DNA from: an uncultured Candidatus Berkelbacteria bacterium
GTDB taxonomy: Bacteria > Patescibacteriota > UBA1384 > CAJBMM01
Length of the DNA stretch: 64,000 nt
Direction of reading: 5' to 3'
Assembly: GCA_903954185.1 (NCBI GenBank)
Contig: CAJBMM010000005.1
Coordinates: 1,768-65,767, forward strand
The translations under genes were made by a program, and so were the position numbers. A model generated the notes under the pieces. That model saw only the letters and a list, made by a program, of their open reading frames with translations. It was not told the origin of the DNA and searched no databases. The first letter of the stretch is position 1. Every line of letters begins with the position of its first letter. This document shows positions 225-59,435 of this stretch, piece after piece.

Positions 225-3218
225 CTAGACAGCTGTTTCCCTTAACACCTCGTCCACTGTGGTCATACCCTCTAGAGCCTTTAGCAAGCCGTCTTGCTTC
301 ATGGTTATCATACCCTCGATAATTGCTTGTTTCTGAATTTCGCTAGTTGCTGCCTTTTTAATTGCCAAATCTTCGATTGCATCACTCATTGACATAACCT
401 CATAAATTCCAATACGTCCTTTATACCCGTTTTGGCATCGCTCGCAACCCTTGCCATGATAAAACACCAACTCGGACTTTATTCTTGCTCTGTCTTTAGG
501 ATTATTTTCGGGAATTTTATTAAGTTCTTCTTGAATTTCGGCAATTACTGCCGGTGGAATTTGAGCAGGCTCTTTGCAACTTTGACAAACTCTACGCACC
601 AAACGTTGACCCATGATAGCATTTATCGATGAAGTGATAAGAAAAGGTTCTACTCCCATATTAATTAAGCGCGGCAACGCTCCGGGAGCATCATTTGTAT
701 GCAGGGTAGAAAGCACCAAATGTCCTGTTAAAGCAGCGTGTGTGGCCATATTAGCGGTTTCAGAATCGCGAATTTCTCCAACCATCACCACATTTGGATC
801 TTGCCGCAAAACAGAACGTAACCCCTCTGCAAAGGTAAAACCAATTTTTGGCTTAATTTGGGCCTGATTTACACCCGCTATCTCATACTCCACAGGATCT
901 TCTAGCGTAATAATATTAACAGTGGGTGTGCTTATACGATTTAAAATTGCATAAAGTGTTGTAGATTTTCCAGAACCAGTCGGTCCAGTAGAAAGTACAA
1001 TGCCATATGGACGTTTTATTCCCTCGATGATTATATCAAACGCGCGTCCAACTACGCCTAAATCTTCTAAAGACAAGATACCATGTGTTTTATCTAAAAT
1101 ACGAAGCACTATCTTTTCACCGTGAACCGTAGGCATAGAAGAAACACGTAAATCTACTGCCCTATCCTTAAACTTCACATCAAATCTGCCATCTTGAGGA
1201 ATGCGGGTTTCATCAATTTTTAATTTGGCTAATATTTTAATGCGGCTAACAATCGCGGCGTGCTGCTCTAATGGCATTCTTATAACATCTTGGAGCATTC
1301 CGTCTACTCTATATCGGATACGTACATCATTAAGCTCTGCCTCTATGTGCACATCAGATGCCCGCAATGTAATTGCGTAACTTACTATTGCGGCAACCAT
1401 CCGCGGAATAAAACCTTCAACGATAATTTTTTGAAGTTCTTCTACTGTTTGCACGTCTTTATTCAATAATGAACCGAGGTCGTCTTCTTCTACATTTGCC
1501 TGTGGAAGCGTTGGTGGAATAATTGGATTATTTTTATCTGATTGTATTGGAATATTGACTTTTGAGGCCTGTGCGATAGGCGCAGCATTAACGGGTGGAA
1601 TTGGCGTGGGCGGAATATTAACATTCTGAAAAACATTAAAGGTGCCCGAACCCAAACGCGCAGAAGCGGAATCGTCTTTCTCTATAGAATGTGGTGTTAC
1701 TGGCGCTGGCGCAGCAACTGGCGCTGGACTTTCAGATGCATACTGAGTTATTACAACATCATCTTCTTTTTTAACCTGGGCTTTAATTTCTGGTTCAATA
1801 TTCGCCTCGGAACGGTTTGCATGCGCAAGCCCAAGCGAAACCATCGCCTTATGAAAGCCAGACTCTGGTTTTATCGCCTTGGTCTTGATAGCTGATTCGT
1901 TTACAGAATCGGGTTTCTGAATAATCTGTTTGTTTTTTTCTGTTGGAGTTTTTACATTTTCATCATTAAATGGTATAGAGACTTTCTTTGGAACAATTTG
2001 AGGTGATGTAGGTACATTTTTTGGCGGAATCGGTAATGCAGAAACTGGCAATGAATTATGAACGCCTGCAGGAGCATGCACAACATTTGTTTCTGTTGGC
2101 TTGCCAGGTAAGTTATGTGGCATCGACATCGGCGCAGGCAATAGCCACTTTGCCACATTCGCATCTGGTAATTTTAACTTTTCTGTTTCTTCATCATATT
2201 TTGCGATCCACTTATCTAAAATGCCCGAATCGTGTTTTTCGATTATCAATAGGACATTATTATGTTCTTCAATAAAGTGCCAAATACGCTTATCTTCCTC
2301 GCGCTGGTCCCTATCGGTTGCAATGTAATATTTTGGCTTCTGGTTAGGCAATTTTTCTAACTTATATACAACAAATCGATATTTACTGGCAACAGCTTTA
2401 GGAATTTTTAGCATCGCGCTTCGATCTGGGTTTTCTGGCAAGTCCTGGATTCGCTTACCATCATATAGGCTTAGACCGTAATCTATATTGACACTGTCAA
2501 ATTTTTTAATTATAAACTTTATTTTATTATTATCACTAATAAATTTTATAGCTGATTTTACTTTTTCAGAATCAGGATCTTCCGCTGCTAACAAATAGCT
2601 TTCTCCAACCTGACCGTAAACTAACATACGATATTTTATAGCTATAGCGACAGGTATTTTTTGCAGTAACTTGGCATCAACAGTTAGCTTTTCACTCTCG
2701 TTTTTAACTTCTTTTGGCATTGCGGGCGATGAATATTCAGATTCGTTCGGATAAACACTAATCCAACGGTTAAATGAATCTGGCGAAGTAACTACAAGAG
2801 TAAATTGTAGTTTTTCTCTACCCTTAATTTCCGATAACACGCCACGCTTATTTTCTTTAATACGAGCAGGATTTGCCACCGCAACCGTAACTTTATTATT
2901 TTCTTTTTTACAAGCTATAATTTCGTACGAAACACATGCAGATTTAGGAATAATTGTCATTACCGCTAAATCTGGAGTAATTGATAGCTCGGTAAATGGT
3001 AAATTCAATACCTTAGCCATTGCAATATTTATAGCCAATCGATTTACTATATTATGAGACTCTAGATAAGTTGCTAAATCTTTAAGCTCTGGCCAATTGG
3101 TAATTTCATTCTTAATGCCCTGAAGCACTGTGTCATTAATAGAACCAGCCAAACGTAAAAAATCGAGCAAAGATGCTTTCTTTTCGGCTTCAGATTTAGT
3201 AAGCACAGATAAGGCCAT
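225..3218 (-). CDS. pilB: Type IV pilus / type II secretion assembly ATPase (GspE/PilB family), unusually long (997 aa), with repeated GspE-N-like N-terminal domains and a Pro-rich linker
   Basis: C-terminal half carries Walker A GPTGSGKSTT, the conserved Asp/His boxes and the CQSC...CERC tetracysteine motif typical of GspE/PilB. The N-terminal ~500 aa contains three segments resembling the GspE N-terminal domain. A Pro-rich stretch (PAPVAAPAPVTP...) links them to the ATPase. Confidence 0.85.
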   Translation of the reverse strand: MALSVLTKSEAEKKASLLDFLRLAGSINDTVLQGIKNEITNWPELKDLATYLESHNIVNRLAINIAMAKVLNLPFTELSITPDLAVMTIIPKSACVSYEIIACKKENNKVTVAVANPARIKENKRGVLSEIKGREKLQFTLVVTSPDSFNRWISVYPNESEYSSPAMPKEVKNESEKLTVDAKLLQKIPVAIAIKYRMLVYGQVGESYLLAAEDPDSEKVKSAIKFISDNNKIKFIIKKFDSVNIDYGLSLYDGKRIQDLPENPDRSAMLKIPKAVASKYRFVVYKLEKLPNQKPKYYIATDRDQREEDKRIWHFIEEHNNVLLIIEKHDSGILDKWIAKYDEETEKLKLPDANVAKWLLPAPMSMPHNLPGKPTETNVVHAPAGVHNSLPVSALPIPPKNVPTSPQIVPKKVSIPFNDENVKTPTEKNKQIIQKPDSVNESAIKTKAIKPESGFHKAMVSLGLAHANRSEANIEPEIKAQVKKEDDVVITQYASESPAPVAAPAPVTPHSIEKDDSASARLGSGTFNVFQNVNIPPTPIPPVNAAPIAQASKVNIPIQSDKNNPIIPPTLPQANVEEDDLGSLLNKDVQTVEELQKIIVEGFIPRMVAAIVSYAITLRASDVHIEAELNDVRIRYRVDGMLQDVIRMPLEQHAAIVSRIKILAKLKIDETRIPQDGRFDVKFKDRAVDLRVSSMPTVHGEKIVLRILDKTHGILSLEDLGVVGRAFDIIIEGIKRPYGIVLSTGPTGSGKSTTLYAILNRISTPTVNIITLEDPVEYEIAGVNQAQIKPKIGFTFAEGLRSVLRQDPNVVMVGEIRDSETANMATHAALTGHLVLSTLHTNDAPGALPRLINMGVEPFLITSSINAIMGQRLVRRVCQSCKEPAQIPPAVIAEIQEELNKIPENNPKDRARIKSELVFYHGKGCERCQNGYKGRIGIYEVMSMSDAIEDLAIKKAATSEIQKQAIIEGMITMKQDGLLKALEGMTTVDEVLRETAV

Positions 3219-4903: not shown

Positions 4904-5257
4904 TTATAGTTTAGATATAATGCCCCAAAGCATTGCTCCGATACGATTCGCAACCTGAGCATATTCATCAAAGCTCTTTTTAGGCAAATACCCCTCTTTT
5001 AAACTAAAATCTAATAGATATTCTGACTCTTTATGCGAACCACAAGAAATTTCTAAAAAATTCTTATTCACTTTAGTTTTTACTCGAGCAAGGCCTTAAG
5101 CATAATTCAACATCACCGAAAGCGCTGAACATCTCAATAGAGAAGTAACGCCATATATTTCCTCCTTGGGAAAACTTCTTGTTATGGCATAAATACCGTG
5201 GGCGTAACCACCGATTAATGATTTTAGCTCTTCATGAAATTTGGAAGTGCTATCCAT
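4904..5257 (-). pseudogene. four-helix-bundle protein (23S rRNA intervening-sequence protein / DGR Avd-like family) interrupted by an in-frame TAA at 5096..5098
   Basis: Minus-strand translation MDSTSKFHEELKSLIGGYAHGIYAITRSFPKEEIYGVTSLLRCSALSVMLNYA*GLARVKTKVNKNFLEISCGSHKESEYLLDFSLKEGYLPKKSFDEYAQVANRIGAMLWGIISKL shows the family hallmarks (G.YA.GIY.IT..FPKEE.YGLTSQLRR ... FL.IA.GS..E). Reading continues in frame through a single TAA. It is not in the ORF track because each half is short. Confidence 0.6.
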
Positions 5258-5309
5258 AATAAAATTCCTTTAAAACGATGTGCGATGCGTCTTACACGAT
5301 GCGCAACCC

Positions 5310-10508: not shown

Positions 10509-11891
10509 ATGACAGATAAAATACCTCGTTACAATACTGCTGAAAGAATTGTTGAATCACCAGCACGCGCGCTAGAAAAAACTGTTGATGCAATTGGTGT
10601 AGCCAATAGATACGTAACCTCTAATGGCCCAATAAAAAAAGCCAAAGAATACTGGCAAACTTTAGGGCCTGGGCTAACCACTGGTGCCGCAGACGATGAC
10701 CCGTCGGGAATTGCTACGTATTCACAAACTGGTGCAAAATATGGCTTTCAACTAATTTGGCTAGCAGGCTTTACATATCCTTTAATGGCAATTATTCAAG
10801 AAATGTGCGCTCGAATTGGCATTGTTACAGGGCGCGGTTTAGCATCTACAATTCGCCATCAATTCCCTAAACCCGTACTTTTACTTTGCGCCACTCTACT
10901 TTTTGCCGCTAACTCTTTTAATATTGGCGCCGATTTAGGCGCAATGGCTAAAGCTATTCAATTATTTAAACCAGAGCTTAGCTATAATTTGCTCATAGTA
11001 TTTTTTGCACTTATAAGTTTAAGTTTGCAAATTTTTATTCCTTATAAAATTTATTCAAAATATTTGAAATGGTTAGCACTGGTTTTATTTGCCTATGTAC
11101 TTTCTGCCTTATTAGTCGGCCTAGATTGGCATGCTGTACTTAAGGCTGCCGTAATTCCTTCTCTAAAAGCTGATAAAGATCAAATTATTTTGATTTGCGG
11201 TATTTTAGGCACCACAATATCGCCATATTTATTCTTTTGGCAAACTTCGCAAGAAGTTGAAGAAAAAATAATGGGCGGACAAACCTCTATCAAGCTTCGT
11301 AAAAGCGATGTTACCAACGAGGAAATCAAAAAAATGCGAATTGATATTTGGTCTGGAATGCTGCTATCTAACGCCGCCATGTTCTTTATTATTGCTGCGT
11401 GTGCCGCAACATTATTTAACTTTGGCAATACAAACATTGGCACAGCTGCCGATGCAGCCGAGGCATTAAGACCACTAGCTGGTGACGGAGCTTTCTTGTT
11501 GTTTGCTTTAGGCATTATTGGGGTGGGGCTTTTAGCCATACCCGTGCTGGCTGGCTCTGCTAGTTACGCAATTGCAGAAAGTTTTGGTTGGAAAGAAGGA
11601 TTATTTTACAAGCTTAATGAGGCATATGCATTTTACGGCGTCATTATCATCTCTATGCTATTTGGCCTTGGTATTAACTTTTTTGGACTAGATCCAATAA
11701 AAACGTTAATTTATTCTGCCGTCGCAAACGGTTTGGTTGCCCCAGTTATATTAGTTATAATTGTTTTGATAAGTAGCAATAAAAAAATCATGGGAAGCAG
11801 AGTTAATCACCCAGTTACCACAATAATTGGGTGGCTAATTACCGCTGGCATGATCATCGCAGGATTAGCCACAATATACTCATTCTTTTAA
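10509..11891 (+). CDS. NRAMP-family divalent metal cation transporter (MntH-like)
   Basis: N-terminal GPGLTTGAADDDPSGIATYSQTGAKYGFQLIW resembles the NRAMP signature (GPG...DPGN-IAT...GA.YG..LLW). About 11 predicted TM helices. RBS AAGGAG precedes the ATG. Confidence 0.6.
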   Translation: MTDKIPRYNTAERIVESPARALEKTVDAIGVANRYVTSNGPIKKAKEYWQTLGPGLTTGAADDDPSGIATYSQTGAKYGFQLIWLAGFTYPLMAIIQEMCARIGIVTGRGLASTIRHQFPKPVLLLCATLLFAANSFNIGADLGAMAKAIQLFKPELSYNLLIVFFALISLSLQIFIPYKIYSKYLKWLALVLFAYVLSALLVGLDWHAVLKAAVIPSLKADKDQIILICGILGTTISPYLFFWQTSQEVEEKIMGGQTSIKLRKSDVTNEEIKKMRIDIWSGMLLSNAAMFFIIAACAATLFNFGNTNIGTAADAAEALRPLAGDGAFLLFALGIIGVGLLAIPVLAGSASYAIAESFGWKEGLFYKLNEAYAFYGVIIISMLFGLGINFFGLDPIKTLIYSAVANGLVAPVILVIIVLISSNKKIMGSRVNHPVTTIIGWLITAGMIIAGLATIYSFF

Positions 11892-11899
11892 GGAGAAAA

Positions 11900-13867
11900 G
11901 TGAACACTTCTGAAACAGAAAGCGCAGCAAGATGGATGAGATATTGGATTTTAAAGATGACCACTCGGGCTGAATCTGGACATGTTACATCATCTTTATC
12001 TGCTGTTGATATTTTAGCCGCCATAATGGATAGCGGTTTTATTTACGATGTAGAAAACCCGCATAACCAAAATAATGACCGATTAATCTTTTCTAAAGGC
12101 CATGCAACCCCGTTATATTACTCTTTTTGGGCACTGACCAGTGGTATCGAACCCGAACAATTGCTTGAATATCGTCAGTTTGGCTCTATATTAGAAGGCC
12201 ATCCAACACCGCAATTCATCCATACTATTGCGGCAACTGGTTCTTTAGGAATGGGGCTTGGGATAGGCACAGGAGTAGCTTTAGGATTTAAAAAATTGAA
12301 ATCTACAGGAAAAGTTTGGGTGTTATTAGGTGATGGAGAGCTAGCAGAAGGTTCGGTGTGGGAAAGCGCAGCCTTCGCATCGCAAAACAATCTTAACAAT
12401 TTAATCGCTATTGTAGATATCAATCGGCTTGGCCAATCTGGCGAAACTGCATATGGATGGAACGATAGTGTGTATAAGCAACGTTTTGAGGCATGGGGCT
12501 GGAAAACCATAATTGTTGATGGTCACAATATCAAAGATATTAAGCGAGGCTTGCATGAAGCGTCTCAAATTAGCAATACGCCAATTGTAATTCTAGCGAA
12601 AACTATTAAAGGTAGGGGCGTGTCTTTTTTAGAGAATATCGAAGGGTGGCATGGTAAGGCGTTAAATGAGGAAGAATGCAAACGCGCTTTAGCCGAACTG
12701 GGTGATATAAAACATAATTTACAAATAAAGTTAACAGCACCAAAAACGACGATGCATATAAATCGGAAGGTGGCTCCCGAAATACTGTCATCCTCGACTA
12801 GCCTATTCGAGGATCCAAAAACTAATAATTATGTGGATTCCTGCTTTCGCAGGAATGACGGCCAAAAGAATGGCGATAATTCAAATATAAAAGAACATAT
12901 TCCAAATCCTCTACAACCTACAACCCACAACCCACAACCTGACATTTCGCCTCGTGAAGCAATAGGCCATCAACTTGCCATCGCTGCAGAAGATGATGAT
13001 CGGCTACTCATTATCGATGGTGATGTAAAAAATTCCACACATTCTGAAATTGTCAGCCAAAAAACTCCTGAGCAACTTATAGAATGCTATATCGCCGAGC
13101 AACAAATGGTCGAGCTAGCCATTGGACTAGATAAAATTGGTTTTGCGCCTGTAGTAGATACATTCGCAGCATTTTTAACCAGAGCTCATGACCAAATTCG
13201 CATGGCTGCAATCTCTAAATCGAATATAATATTTATTGGCACTCATGTTGGTATTTCCATTGGAAAGGATGGTCCAAGCCAAATGGGTTTGGAAGATATT
13301 GCTATGTTTCGCCCGTTAGTCGATTCCACCATCGTCTCCCCTGCCGATACTCATAGTGCAATCCAGCTAACTACTCAATTAATCGGTTGTCGCGGAATTA
13401 GATATATTAGAGCCTTACGTGAAGTAACGCCTTGCATATACAATCAAAAAGACCAAATTGAGGTTGGCAAATGGCATGTCTTAAAAAACACATCTAAATC
13501 GCAAGTTGCCATTCTTGCTACTGGCATATCTGTACACAGCGCGCTTAAAGCACATGATAAATTGCTAAGCGATAACATTCCCACTATGATTGTGGATTGC
13601 TATAGTATTAAACCGCTGGATAAAGATAAACTAATAGAAATTGCTACCAAATTTAGACATATAATCATTGTCGAAGATCATTATTATCAAGGCGGGCTAG
13701 GCGATTCAATACTAGAGGCATTAAGCGAATTAAACATCGTTATACCAAATGTTTACAAGATAGCCGTGCAAAATATACCCAGATCTGGCACACCAAAAGA
13801 TTTGATGCAAAACGAGGGTATTGACGAAAAAGGTATAATAAAAAAAGTAAAAATGATTGTAAAATAA
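11900..13867 (+). CDS. tkt: transketolase with N-terminal (TPP-binding) and C-terminal (pyrimidine-binding) halves fused through a ~55-aa linker encoded by a dispersed-repeat insertion
   Basis: N-terminal half: ESGHVTSSLSAVDILAAI, GHATPLYY, LGDGELAEGSVWE. C-terminal half: IAEQQMVELAIGL, GTHVGISIGKDGPSQMG, and C-terminal domain. Likely start is GTG 11900 preceded by AGGAG; the ORF track begins at 11831 and overlaps mntH. Linker 12780..12945 contains the intergenic repeat motif tatgtggattcctgctttcgcaggaatgac. Confidence 0.8.
   Translation: MNTSETESAARWMRYWILKMTTRAESGHVTSSLSAVDILAAIMDSGFIYDVENPHNQNNDRLIFSKGHATPLYYSFWALTSGIEPEQLLEYRQFGSILEGHPTPQFIHTIAATGSLGMGLGIGTGVALGFKKLKSTGKVWVLLGDGELAEGSVWESAAFASQNNLNNLIAIVDINRLGQSGETAYGWNDSVYKQRFEAWGWKTIIVDGHNIKDIKRGLHEASQISNTPIVILAKTIKGRGVSFLENIEGWHGKALNEEECKRALAELGDIKHNLQIKLTAPKTTMHINRKVAPEILSSSTSLFEDPKTNNYVDSCFRRNDGQKNGDNSNIKEHIPNPLQPTTHNPQPDISPREAIGHQLAIAAEDDDRLLIIDGDVKNSTHSEIVSQKTPEQLIECYIAEQQMVELAIGLDKIGFAPVVDTFAAFLTRAHDQIRMAAISKSNIIFIGTHVGISIGKDGPSQMGLEDIAMFRPLVDSTIVSPADTHSAIQLTTQLIGCRGIRYIRALREVTPCIYNQKDQIEVGKWHVLKNTSKSQVAILATGISVHSALKAHDKLLSDNIPTMIVDCYSIKPLDKDKLIEIATKFRHIIIVEDHYYQGGLGDSILEALSELNIVIPNVYKIAVQNIPRSGTPKDLMQNEGIDEKGIIKKVKMIVK
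12826..12859. repeat. dispersed palindromic repeat family A core (ttatgtRgattcctgc-ttcg-gcaggaatgac) located in frame inside tkt
   Basis: Near-identical to intergenic copies at 20607..20640, 24224..24256 and 24183..24207, and to reverse-orientation copies at 19249..19325, 29667..29745 and 59288..59435. Confidence 0.8.
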
Positions 13868-15187: not shown

Positions 15188-15209
15188 ATTAGGTTTTAGG
15201 TTTTAGCTG

Positions 15210-15668
15210 TTAGCTTTTAAGATTATTTAAGAGATTCCTAGCTTTAATTATAAAGCTTAAATCGCGATTGTGAATAATTTTTTCAATATTGTCTTGTGGG
15301 TTTATGCGCTCAAAGGTGGTTATTGCCTCATCTACTGGCATCCAGATGACTTTAAAATTCCGCTCTATTTCACGCTTATCAAAGTTTGGCTCGCCTTTTT
15401 CTCCAACTAGCTTGCCAATAAAATATTTTGAGTGATAAGTGCGATCTTTTAGTGGGTGATAGAACGAAAAATCACCAATACATTCGCCCACGACTATCTT
15501 ACAACCCGCTTCTTCTAATACCTCACGATTAAGCGCTTGCATTTCGGTTTCACCTTCTTCAATGGTACCTCCCGGAATTTTATAGTACACCCCATTTTGC
15601 ACACTTAAAATGGGAGTATTCTTTTCATCGTCAAATATTATTGCCCTAACGGCAAATTTATCTTTCAT
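15210..15668 (-). CDS. NUDIX hydrolase
   Basis: Nudix box GGTIEEGETEMQALNREVLEEAGC (GX5EX7REUXEEXGU). Confidence 0.8.
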   Translation of the reverse strand: MKDKFAVRAIIFDDEKNTPILSVQNGVYYKIPGGTIEEGETEMQALNREVLEEAGCKIVVGECIGDFSFYHPLKDRTYHSKYFIGKLVGEKGEPNFDKREIERNFKVIWMPVDEAITTFERINPQDNIEKIIHNRDLSFIIKARNLLNNLKS

Positions 15669-24100: not shown

Positions 24101-24441
24101 CTATTAACAAACTACAACTTGGATCCAGTGAGGTATTTGAGCTTGTGTATTCCAAATTCCAGATCTGCAGAGTATTTATCGTGTCATTCCTGCGAAGGCA
24201 GGAATCCAGTCTATCATAAATTTATTATGTAGATTCCTGCCTTCGCAGGAATGACAATGTGCAAAAATATTTAATTAGCAGTTCTATATTTTGCCACTTC
24301 CGTTACTTCTGCTACTTATTCTCTTTAGTCATTAGTCATTCGGATTTTTTGATTTCTGCCGTGCCGTCCGCTGTGCCATCCGTAGCTTTAGCGTAGGATT
24401 GGTAGCCTTGCGCGAAGGATCGGTAACTTTATTTACTTCTG

Positions 24442-29652: not shown

Positions 29653-29880
29653 AGATTCTCCTTAATGTGTCATTCCTGCGTAGGTCGTTCGATTGCACTC
29701 AGACCCTGAGCCTGTCGAAAGGGCAGGAATCTATCTAATACGTTTTGATTATTATGCATCCATCTTCGCACACCTCCGATATGCTTACCCCGCTAAGCGG
29801 GGGTCTACATCGCAGGGGCGCTTCATTCATTTATAAAACAGATATTCCAAAACTTTTAACTTTGCACATTTCACTTTTAA

Positions 29881-49148: not shown

Positions 49149-49164
49149 CTAAATCTCCAGTTTT

Positions 49165-49236
49165 TAGTCATTAGTCATTAGTCATTAGTCATTAGTCATT
49201 AGTCATTAGTCATTAGTCATTAGTCATTAGTCATTA
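49165..49236. repeat. (TAGTCAT)n heptanucleotide microsatellite, ~10 tandem copies, in the ftsW-murD intergenic space
   Basis: Direct reading: ttagtcattagtcattagtcattagtcattagtcattagtcattagtcattagtcattagtcatta. Shorter tracts of the same unit at 171..200 and 24305..24325. Related heptamer tracts at 57351..57412 and 58381..58410. Confidence 0.9.
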
Positions 49237-58847: not shown

Positions 58848-59287
58848 CTATCGCACCTTCGGCTTGAGTGCAAAATGCAAAGTGCAAAATGCATAATTAT
58901 GGAATTTTTTGAAAATTGAAAATTGAAAATTGAAAATTCTGTTATATATGGCCTCTCCAACGGCCAACTGGAATCTTTATACAAGAAACCAAGCTGACCG
59001 TTGGATCTAAATTTCGGCCTTTTGCCCCTCCTTAAAGCCCCATAACAAGCGAGACGCTCGTAAATAGGGTGGCTTACAAAGTGTCTGCGGCTAATAAAAG
59101 TTATCCACAGGGTTATCCACTTTTCCCCACTTTGCCCCACTTTTAAGGATCTAGATTGATATTAGCCCCACATCTACCCACTGTCAATACAAACAAAACC
59201 CGAAAGTTTGCATAAGGATGTGCGAAAAGCACCCAATAAATTGAGCACTTCGCCTTTATAATGAGCATTTCAACTCACATACATAGT

Positions 59288-59435
59288 TGTTATTCCTGCG
59301 CATGCAGGAATCTACATAATAAATCGGATAACTGGATTTCTGCCCATTCGACAAGCTCAGGGTCTCTAGTGCAATCGATTGACCTTCGCCCGTCTCGTTC
59401 GAGGCGAACAGCCGAGGTGGACAGGAATGACAGTG
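59288..59435. repeat. dispersed palindromic repeat family A, long composite copy
   Basis: attcctgcgcatgcaggaatctacataataaat ... cattcgacaagctcagggtct ... gacaggaatgaca. Same modules as 19249..19325 and 29667..29745. Confidence 0.75.

Follow-up and report, generated by a model that had tools for sequence, protein, structure and literature searches.

Within a 64,000-nucleotide stretch of DNA from an uncultured Candidatus Berkelbacteria bacterium (hereafter, the window), the gene for a single-chain transketolase (positions 11900..13867, plus strand) carries, in the DNA for its inter-domain linker, an extra segment that contains two small inverted hairpins. Our reading, which we hold to be very probable, is that a hairpin pair resembling the class of the Neisseria repeat NTS and of the Ssn-related motifs (SRM) landed in frame in the flexible linker of an otherwise ordinary enzyme. 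What the window offers is an in-frame genic copy of a repeat class that is already known, though not hitherto described from this lineage. An original prediction made on this DNA had proposed that a dispersed palindromic repeat either created, or rides in, the junction of a gene fusion; the second of these alternatives was borne out, in that the repeat does ride in frame in the transketolase linker and is absent from the orthologues.

The open reading frame (ORF) runs on the plus strand from 11831 to 13867 without a stop along its whole length, so that the frame stays open across the insertion and the translation is the one that had been given: the linker reads ...YVDSCFRRNDGQ...PLQPTTHNPQPD or, in its longer form, ...NNYVDSCFRRNDGQ...PLQPTTHNPQPD, and the predicted translation across the insert contains ...NNYVDSCFRRNDGQK.... 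The single product that had been proposed does correspond to one ORF, its length being 655 aa—and not 656—from the likely GTG start at 11900, which codon stands 8 bases after an AGGAG; the distance from domain to domain, ...ELG to AIGH..., measured about 85 codons instead of the approximately 55 that had been counted for the join. Three Pfam domains were recognized: Transketolase_N, which binds thiamine pyrophosphate (TPP), at residues 10-268; Transket_pyr at 350-504; and Transketolase_C at 525-646. The NCBIfam equivalog for single-chain transketolases, NF004559 (cut-off 488 bits), matched along positions 15-624 of its 627 with a score of 730.6 bits. The best solved relative was the human transketolase (TKT; PDB 3MOS, 4KXU; 38% identity), which matched in two blocks, residues 9-281 corresponding to human 18-289 and residues 345-653 to human 311-619; since residues 281-345 thus face human 289-311, the linker is some 42 residues longer than that of the human enzyme. 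The AlphaFold model (predicted template-modelling score, pTM, 0.85) matched human TKT in Foldseek with E = 4e-57 and template-modelling (TM) scores of 0.86/0.91, and the columns invariant among 13 homologues were all kept in the window's protein. Homologues with E <= 1e-50 numbered 8000, and every one of the 120 among those listed was a single-chain protein with the N, Pyr, and C domains, mostly of 606-640 aa (about 610).

On the strength of the NF004559 match, the alignment with human TKT, and the single-chain homologues, this transketolase is an ordinary "human-type" single-chain enzyme, whose single-chain form is ancestral. The same comparisons bear on the proposal that the palindromic element fused a formerly split transketolase by bridging an N-terminal and a C-terminal ORF. 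Split transketolases do exist (PDB 6yak and 6yaj were among the matches) and the repeat does lie exactly between the two halves; nevertheless, the gene belongs to the single-chain family, the 120 listed homologues are single-chain without exception, human TKT can be aligned with the protein before as well as after the linker, and the repeat-free orthologues described below are already single genes, which last finding refutes the proposal. To a fusion created by the repeat we thus give next to no credence, and the attractive idea of a repeat-built fused enzyme is removed as wrong. A hidden two-gene arrangement was likewise considered: the linker region contained neither a promoter-like site on either strand nor a terminator-like site on the plus strand and, with no such internal signals, that arrangement was not supported. 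The closest relatives bearing a name, both "Patescibacteria group bacterium" proteins, were 49% identical for the transketolase and 57% for the arginyl-tRNA synthetase; the G+C content of the window is 38.9%; and a metagenome scan for close transketolase relatives, carried out with unspecific peptide patterns, returned only an unrelated match of 27% identity (L003).

Comparison with orthologues, which had been suggested as a check, delimited the extra segment. Two contigs, L001 and L004, carry syntenic loci (Nramp, transketolase, PspC, and LiaF-like genes), in which the transketolase orthologues are single genes for 618 and 620 aa; when their DNA was aligned with that of the window, a net 105 nt (35 codons) proved to be present in the window only, at roughly 12786..12893 on the plus strand, and the protein alignment showed the same 35 codons to be extra. 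The segment encodes roughly APEILS...LFEDPKTNNYVDSCFRRNDGQKNGDNSNI, at about residues 296-331, its boundaries being approximate because the flanks have diverged. The placement of the gap comes from one DNA alignment, the BLAST blocks, and the protein alignment, MAFFT having misplaced the gaps in two DNA alignments. The closest relative, the 640-aa protein P0002, which is 82% identical in the alignment and was compared at the protein level, lacks 26 of the 35 codons—the hairpin peptide among them—and has 12 unrelated residues at the site; more distant homologues lack the segment as well. The three lineages therefore have 4, 12, and 41 residues at the insertion site, which is a spot of variable length. 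P0002, for its part, carries an 11-residue insert of its own, LLRTRLRKGTA, within the heptamer-coded stretch PLQPT|TYNLQ, and insertions may have come to this linker more than once within the clade. Neither terminal inverted repeats nor a target-site duplication could be defined for the window's insert; a possible AAATAC / AAATAT duplication at its borders, noticed by eye, was too weak to be claimed.

We take the extra segment, from these alignments, to be a lineage-specific in-frame insertion, since a single acquisition in the lineage of the window explains the distribution more economically than two separate losses would. Were the segment instead ancestral to the clade, it would have been lost independently in P0002 and in the lineage of L001 and L004. 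The variability of the linker (4, 12, or 41 residues in the three lineages) would agree with such a history, as would the fact that hairpin pairs are prone to deletion; yet in the right hairpin of the insert all 8 bp of the stem still pair perfectly, and this hairpin shares 94-96% identity with its intergenic copies, the more distant homologues lack the segment too, and two losses would have to be invoked in place of one gain. We thus consider a double loss improbable. That near-identity of the right hairpin to its intergenic copies also points, at the sequence level, to a recent insertion.

The insert is composed of two inverted hairpins, with the layout GTCAT-stem-ATCCA, spacer, TGGAT-stem-ATGAC, which pair spans 73 nt at 12787-12859. 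The left hairpin (12787..12816, in NTS-type orientation on the plus strand) reads GTCAT CCTCGA ctagcctat TCGAGG ATCCA, with an 8-bp stem, and aligns with GTCATTCCTGCGAAGGCAGGAATCCAG of an intergenic pair at 24183. The 8-bp palindrome atcctcga/tcgaggat that had been reported at 12790..12814 is there, with its arms at 12790-12797 and 12807-12814, and amounts to one more hairpin of this kind, inverted with respect to the right one. The spacer (12817..12833, plus strand; aaaactaataattatg, 17 nt) resembles that of the intergenic pairs, …aaatttattatg. The right hairpin (12834..12859; NTS-type orientation on the minus strand), GTCATTCCTGCGAAAGCAGGAATCCA, has an 8-bp stem and a 4-nt loop; on the plus strand its sequence is TGGAT-TCCTGC-tttc-GCAGGA-ATGAC, which encodes DSCFRRND, and five of its six reading frames are open, as read from the DNA. 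There follows a tail of 34 nt (12860..12893, plus strand) that matches nothing else in the window significantly. When folded as single-stranded DNA, the transketolase segment gave two separate 8-bp hairpins, at -18.2 kcal/mol and z = -4.5.

Downstream lies an array of 4.3 copies of the heptamer CTACAAC (12911..12940, plus strand; period 7) that encodes PLQPTTHNPQ, residues 338-347. The string ctacaacctacaacccacaacc, at 12911-12932 within this array, has relatives at 16764 and, on the minus strand, at 22688, against 0 expected. The heptamer module had been assigned to the repeat insertion at 12911..12939, and it is indeed there; it does not, however, form part of the recent insert, because the orthologues in L001 and L004 also have a CTACAAC-like run, CCACAACCCACAACCCACAA, at that spot (in L001, CCACAAC in 2.9 copies, at L001 10914-10933). 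By sequence, then, the heptamer run is older linker material lying outside the recent insert. More distant homologues do not have it, and in L001 the only period-7 array is the one inside the transketolase gene.

The likeness of the insert to repeats between the genes proved to be genuine, though narrower than proposed. The repeat at 12828-12859 (32 nt) recurs at four intergenic places with 90-96% identity, and more weakly at three others (16711, 20886, and 22723). When 12760-12960 was compared with the rest of the window by BLAST, matches of 30/32 were obtained at 20608 and 24224, of 25/26 at 24183 (minus strand), and of 26/29 at 59292 (minus strand), with E = 4e-8. Apart from the heptamer run, the remainder of 12760-12960 gave no significant match within the window. 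The observation is accordingly real, but the part that belongs to "family A", as the intergenic repeat had been called, is limited to 32 nt: these recur in the window, while the rest of the 166 nt initially reported matches nothing there except through the heptamers. The repeat string itself, ttatgtggattcctgctttcgcaggaatgac, which had been placed at 12826..12859, is present and starts at 12829 (12829-12859); its 26-mer found 4 matches at <=3 mismatches, whereas 100 shuffles gave an expectation of 0.00.

Among the intergenic copies, that at 24183..24255 is a perfect inverted pair of the same hairpin with a 21-nt spacer, which folds into one long hairpin (-32.8 kcal/mol, z = -11.7). The copy at 20608..20639 (plus strand; 30/32 identical) is followed by further hairpin modules; that at 59292..59320 (minus strand; 26/29 identical) adjoins a compound hairpin; a diverged copy at 16716..16787 (plus strand), GATTCTTGTCTTCGCCAGAATGAC, continues into CTACAAC in 3.6 copies; and one at 20896..20923 (minus strand), TGTCATTCCCGTGAAAACGGGAATCCAT, has a stem richer in G+C. 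The pair layout of the insert, in which an A+T-rich spacer ending in ttattatg separates a hairpin from its inverted counterpart, is found between genes as well, at 24183-24255 and 59292-59360. A structural scan of the window for GTCA[TC]-stem-[AG]TC returned 10 hairpins, 8 of which lie in the approximately 16% of the DNA that is non-coding, the other 2 being the transketolase pair.

We also weighed whether the insert might be an assembly chimera formed through the repeat, or its likeness to the intergenic repeats a coincidence. Repeats are able to mislead assemblers; nonetheless, the transketolase gene showed 0 mismatches over 1968 nt against contigs of two other samples, L002 (JGI) and L005 (ENA), whose assemblies are independent, and the identical full protein is recorded on 5 + 13 contigs, i.e., 18. 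A coincidence, in turn, conflicts with the 4 matches of the hairpin 26-mer against 0.00 expected and with the BLAST E value of 4e-8. The assembly at the transketolase is sound and not an artefact, the ORF being intact and the gene identical in both samples, which disposes of the interruption by sequencing error that had been named as a possible objection; we find either a chimera or a chance likeness scarcely credible. Taken as a whole, the L002 and L005 contigs share 99.96-99.98% identity with the window, i.e., they represent one strain.

As to the class of the hairpins, NTS / dRS3 and the SRM are hairpin repeats that serve as targets of the GIY-YIG Ssn nucleases (Nat Commun 2025, PMC11893778). 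The Neisseria NTS, CGTCATTCCCGCGMAVGCGGGAATCYRG, contains the older dRS3 repeat, and the SRM class flanks genes for small single-domain GIY-YIG nucleases across many phyla; the meningococcal Ssn acts on the repeat, by binding and cleavage, only when the DNA is single-stranded, and it reduces how much transforming DNA bearing the repeat is integrated (PMC11893778). The reverse complement of the right transketolase hairpin, CGTCATTCCTGCGAAAGCAGGAATCCAC, matches NTS at 25 of 28 positions, and the three mismatches consist of a compensating C>T / G>A pair in the stem plus the last base. Both transketolase hairpins, moreover, have the form of an SRM hairpin, namely an inverted repeat of 20-50 nt with GTC before and C after, their stems being of 8 bp and their ends GTCAT...ATCCA.

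An exact 24-nt core of the hairpin, GATTCCTGNNTTCGCAGGAATGAC, was scanned over one genome per species, and gave at least 134 copies in at least 120 stretches. Its hosts comprise Flavobacteriia, Nitrospirota, Ignavibacteria, Rickettsia and relatives, Dehalococcoidia, and Planctomycetes, together with Peribacteria, Paceibacteria, Peregrinibacteria, and a bin labelled Nanoarchaeota. The flanks of the core are unrelated from genome to genome, save for a preceding TG or TA, and further hairpins of this kind frequently lie close by. In at least six loci a GIY-YIG ORF adjoins the core (L056, L063 on both sides, L103, L034, L098, and L094), and Pfam PF01541 was confirmed for two of those ORFs. In the Ignavibacteria contig L063 (175-614) the GIY-YIG gene is bracketed on both sides by the exact hairpin, like a tiny insertion sequence; in the Flavobacteriaceae contigs L034 (7202-7827) and L111 (245-640) the hairpin recurs with conserved flanks, at spacings of ~301 and ~186 nt. 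On the grounds of sequence, shape, oriented flanks, and the gene association in other genomes, the transketolase hairpins resemble the NTS / SRM class and would belong with it.

Several points weigh against that assignment, or against the insertion as we describe it. The published SRM pattern is HGTCWYN(0-2)YYVSBRHN(0-5)WNVSBRGN(0-2)RNCYNB, and for NTS one mismatch is allowed: the transketolase hairpins fit neither, because their stems are richer in A+T. The SRM pattern found a single match in the window, at 20896-20923, against 0.16 in shuffles, which intergenic hairpin is the sole copy in the window that fits it. Only 32 of the 105 nt are matched elsewhere in the window; the left hairpin and the 34-nt tail were assigned by their shape instead of by copies. 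The exact boundaries of the insert are approximate and a target-site duplication is not fixed, P0002 having been compared as protein. Finally, a motif scan, Pfam on small ORFs, and tblastn revealed no GIY-YIG gene in the 64 kb of the window, which makes a trans-acting partner hypothetical for this organism.

How often such hairpins occur within genes can be judged from other genomes. Among the at least 134 exact copies listed, a single one clearly lies in the interior of a gene with a recognized domain, and where copies fall in long ORFs most are at the very ends of those ORFs. The internal copy lies in a DNA methylase (Pfam N6_N4_Mtase) on contig L018, ...ESTSNG-MDSCFRRNDAIQDANNSVIPAQAGIQ-KNNKRDIILDFFLGSGTT..., in which an in-frame inverted pair of NTS-type hairpins (1497-1583, minus strand) encodes MDSCFRRNDAIQDANNSVIPAQAGIQ just before the FxGSGTT motif, and whose first hairpin is read, as in the transketolase, in the DSCFRRND frame. 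L018 belongs to a metagenome-assembled genome labelled Nanoarchaeota, but the contig is of just 3.8 kb and its binning is uncertain. The hairpins are, overwhelmingly, intergenic elements with rare in-frame survivors; with five of the six frames open, a copy within a gene can survive provided simply that its length is divisible by three and that the site is tolerant.

The transketolase linker appears to be such a site. In the AlphaFold model the domains are confident, whereas residues 290-345, which include the insert and the heptamer-coded part, have predicted local-distance scores (pLDDT) of <50 and no secondary structure, so that the insert is predicted to sit in a disordered linker. In the sequence of events that we favor, a non-autonomous pair of inverted small hairpins would have entered, in the window's lineage, the DNA encoding the linker between the TPP-binding and the pyrimidine-binding domains; the hairpins would spread via single-stranded DNA intermediates, aided by an Ssn-type GIY-YIG nuclease presumably encoded elsewhere in the genome; and, the net 105 nt being a multiple of three and no stop occurring through both hairpins, the cell would make a full-length, active transketolase with ~35 extra disordered residues in its linker.

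Whether the insert does anything for the cell is a further consideration, and most likely it is tolerated rather than useful. It might conceivably have been put to use, by providing nuclease or recombination sites, mRNA structure in an essential gene, or a functional linker peptide. The segment folds much better than shuffles do (z about -4), and NTS repeats modulate the integration of transforming DNA in Neisseria (PMC11893778). The sequence is, furthermore, kept identical in several samples; but those samples hold one strain, so that their identity shows no selection. The L018 methylase has the same hairpin in the same frame, which coincidence is weak evidence for the reason that most of the hairpin's frames are open anyway. 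Set against a use are the predicted disorder of the peptide and the relatives that manage without the insert, and we judge it unlikely.

The transketolase and the L018 methylase are two clean examples which show that such hairpins are able to survive inside genes if they lie in frame in disordered segments. From the same two cases—the transketolase here and the methylase with its DSCFRRND frame—a broader proposition might be derived: that NTS/SRM-class hairpin pairs are mobile units like REPINs (paired repetitive extragenic palindromic, REP, sequences), colonising coding sequences in frame in the reduced genomes of the Candidate Phyla Radiation and of DPANN-type archaea. We regard this as doubtful. 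Were it true, new peptides in linkers or loops would originate from the pairs, and target sites for a single-strand nuclease would come to lie within essential genes, with a potential bias on recombination or transformation at those genes.

The significance of the case is otherwise circumscribed. The window's "family A" repeat can now be connected with a class of hairpins whose association with a nuclease family is itself a recent finding, and the known range of the NTS/SRM class would widen to include Patescibacteria and, possibly, an archaeal bin of DPANN type. Since the peptides DSCFRRND, WIPAFAGMT, and VIPAQAGIQ flag these repeats, they may be of use in annotation. For the rest, this is a small case of linker growth, which leaves views of transketolase or of repeat function unchanged.

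The window is rich in hairpin types with shared ends, in compound hairpins, and in period-7 arrays, of which there are some three dozen, whereas the syntenic relatives have far fewer. The arrays have many different units and are almost all intergenic, the longest being TTAGTCA in 10.4 copies; examples lie at 49164-49236, 169-198, 15189-15219, 22867-22896, and 58909-58938. They resemble the short tandem heptamer repeats of heterocyst-forming cyanobacteria. Between rpmG and a cytidine-deaminase gene, at 16672-16787, there are ~116 nt consisting of a hairpin plus CTACAAC in 3.6 copies, which DNA is missing from L001 and L004, where the two genes abut or overlap; because the hairpin and the heptamers share this one extra stretch, the two kinds of repeat can arrive together, although in the transketolase gene the heptamer run is the older. 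As read from the sequence, the same DNA appears to supply the stop of the deaminase (...DLSGK* versus ...DLSGNGKDK*) as well as a GGAG ahead of the start of rpmG.

The compound hairpins, at 19245-19322, 29664-29740, and 59330-59432, have a GTCATTCCTGC...GCAGGAATC stem that encloses a conserved insert of 45 nt and look like one element inserted in another's loop, two of the copies being 90% identical. Between repeat clusters at 19700-20550 lies an island of 60-66% G+C with long overlapping ORFs on both strands, including a 213-aa ORF without a Pfam match; the island had no Rfam match at E <= 0.1, its predicted fold is, for either strand, more stable than those of shuffled sequences (z = -4.9 and -5.2), and it might represent foreign DNA or else a large structured RNA. 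In the window at large Rfam recognized tRNAs only. A 351-aa ORF at 21312-22367 has an N-terminal HTH_38 domain, as in transposases of the IS30 type, with no match to a catalytic domain; the repeat clusters on either side of it (20600-20925 and 22680-22950) are the densest in the window. At 4904-5260 on the minus strand, a gene for a '23S rRNA intervening sequence protein' of the four-helix-bundle type appears, by sequence reading, to be frameshifted; a weak PF05635 match is recorded for a fragment of 55 aa from the same DNA in L005.

With respect to known systems, the enzyme itself departs little from its family: the order of the three domains, the fold, and the place of the linker are all those of NF004559 and human TKT. 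The original prediction had likened the insertion to Rickettsia palindromic elements (RPE), a likeness that applies to the outcome, i.e., a small palindromic repeat lying in frame in the gene of a housekeeping enzyme at a place compatible with the fold, and not to the habit. RPE are ~150 bp (about 100-150 bp) long, encode a conserved peptide, and have nearly half of their copies in ORFs, according to the account of Ogata et al. 2000 given in PMC10969869; the class which the transketolase hairpins resemble corresponds neither to that size and peptide nor to that large share in ORFs. The element here is a 73-nt pair of which 32 nt recur in the window, 8 of the 10 hairpins of the window are intergenic, and genic copies are exceptional (1 clearly so among at least 134), which features set the class apart from RPE as so described. 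The exact hairpin core does occur, all the same, in Rickettsia genomes (L039, L044, L051, and L098).

In-frame intragenic copies are known also for ERIC, BOX, and QMITE1 (reviewed in PMC10969869), which, like other miniature inverted-repeat transposable elements of that kind, are small non-autonomous repeats with occasional in-frame ORF fusions, as is the hairpin pair, but which constitute other sequence families of other sizes. The intergenic repeats of the window are reminiscent, in addition, of bacterial interspersed mosaic elements (BIME) and of the Neisseria intergenic mosaic elements, in being mosaics of several hairpin types with short tandem repeats. With REP sequences and REPINs they share a GTAG or GTGG before a short hairpin (tGTAGATTCC / tGTGGATTCC) and an arrangement in inverted pairs, at 12787-12859, 24183-24255, and 59292-59360; they differ from the REP system and its RAYT (Y1 transposase) genes in that their sequence class is tied to GIY-YIG nucleases and not to Y1 transposases, and no RAYT gene was noticed among the window ORFs scanned, which were a part of the total and were not searched systematically. 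The closest correspondence is with NTS/SRM. The transketolase hairpins depart from that class in the A+T-richer stem, in a window with no ssn gene, in a host that is a patescibacterium and not a proteobacterium, and in a location inside coding sequence, which case is not mentioned in the main text of PMC11893778; they share with it the oriented, non-palindromic GTCAT...ATCC flanks and, as a family, the capacity to form hairpins, the multiplicity of copies, and the clustering between genes.

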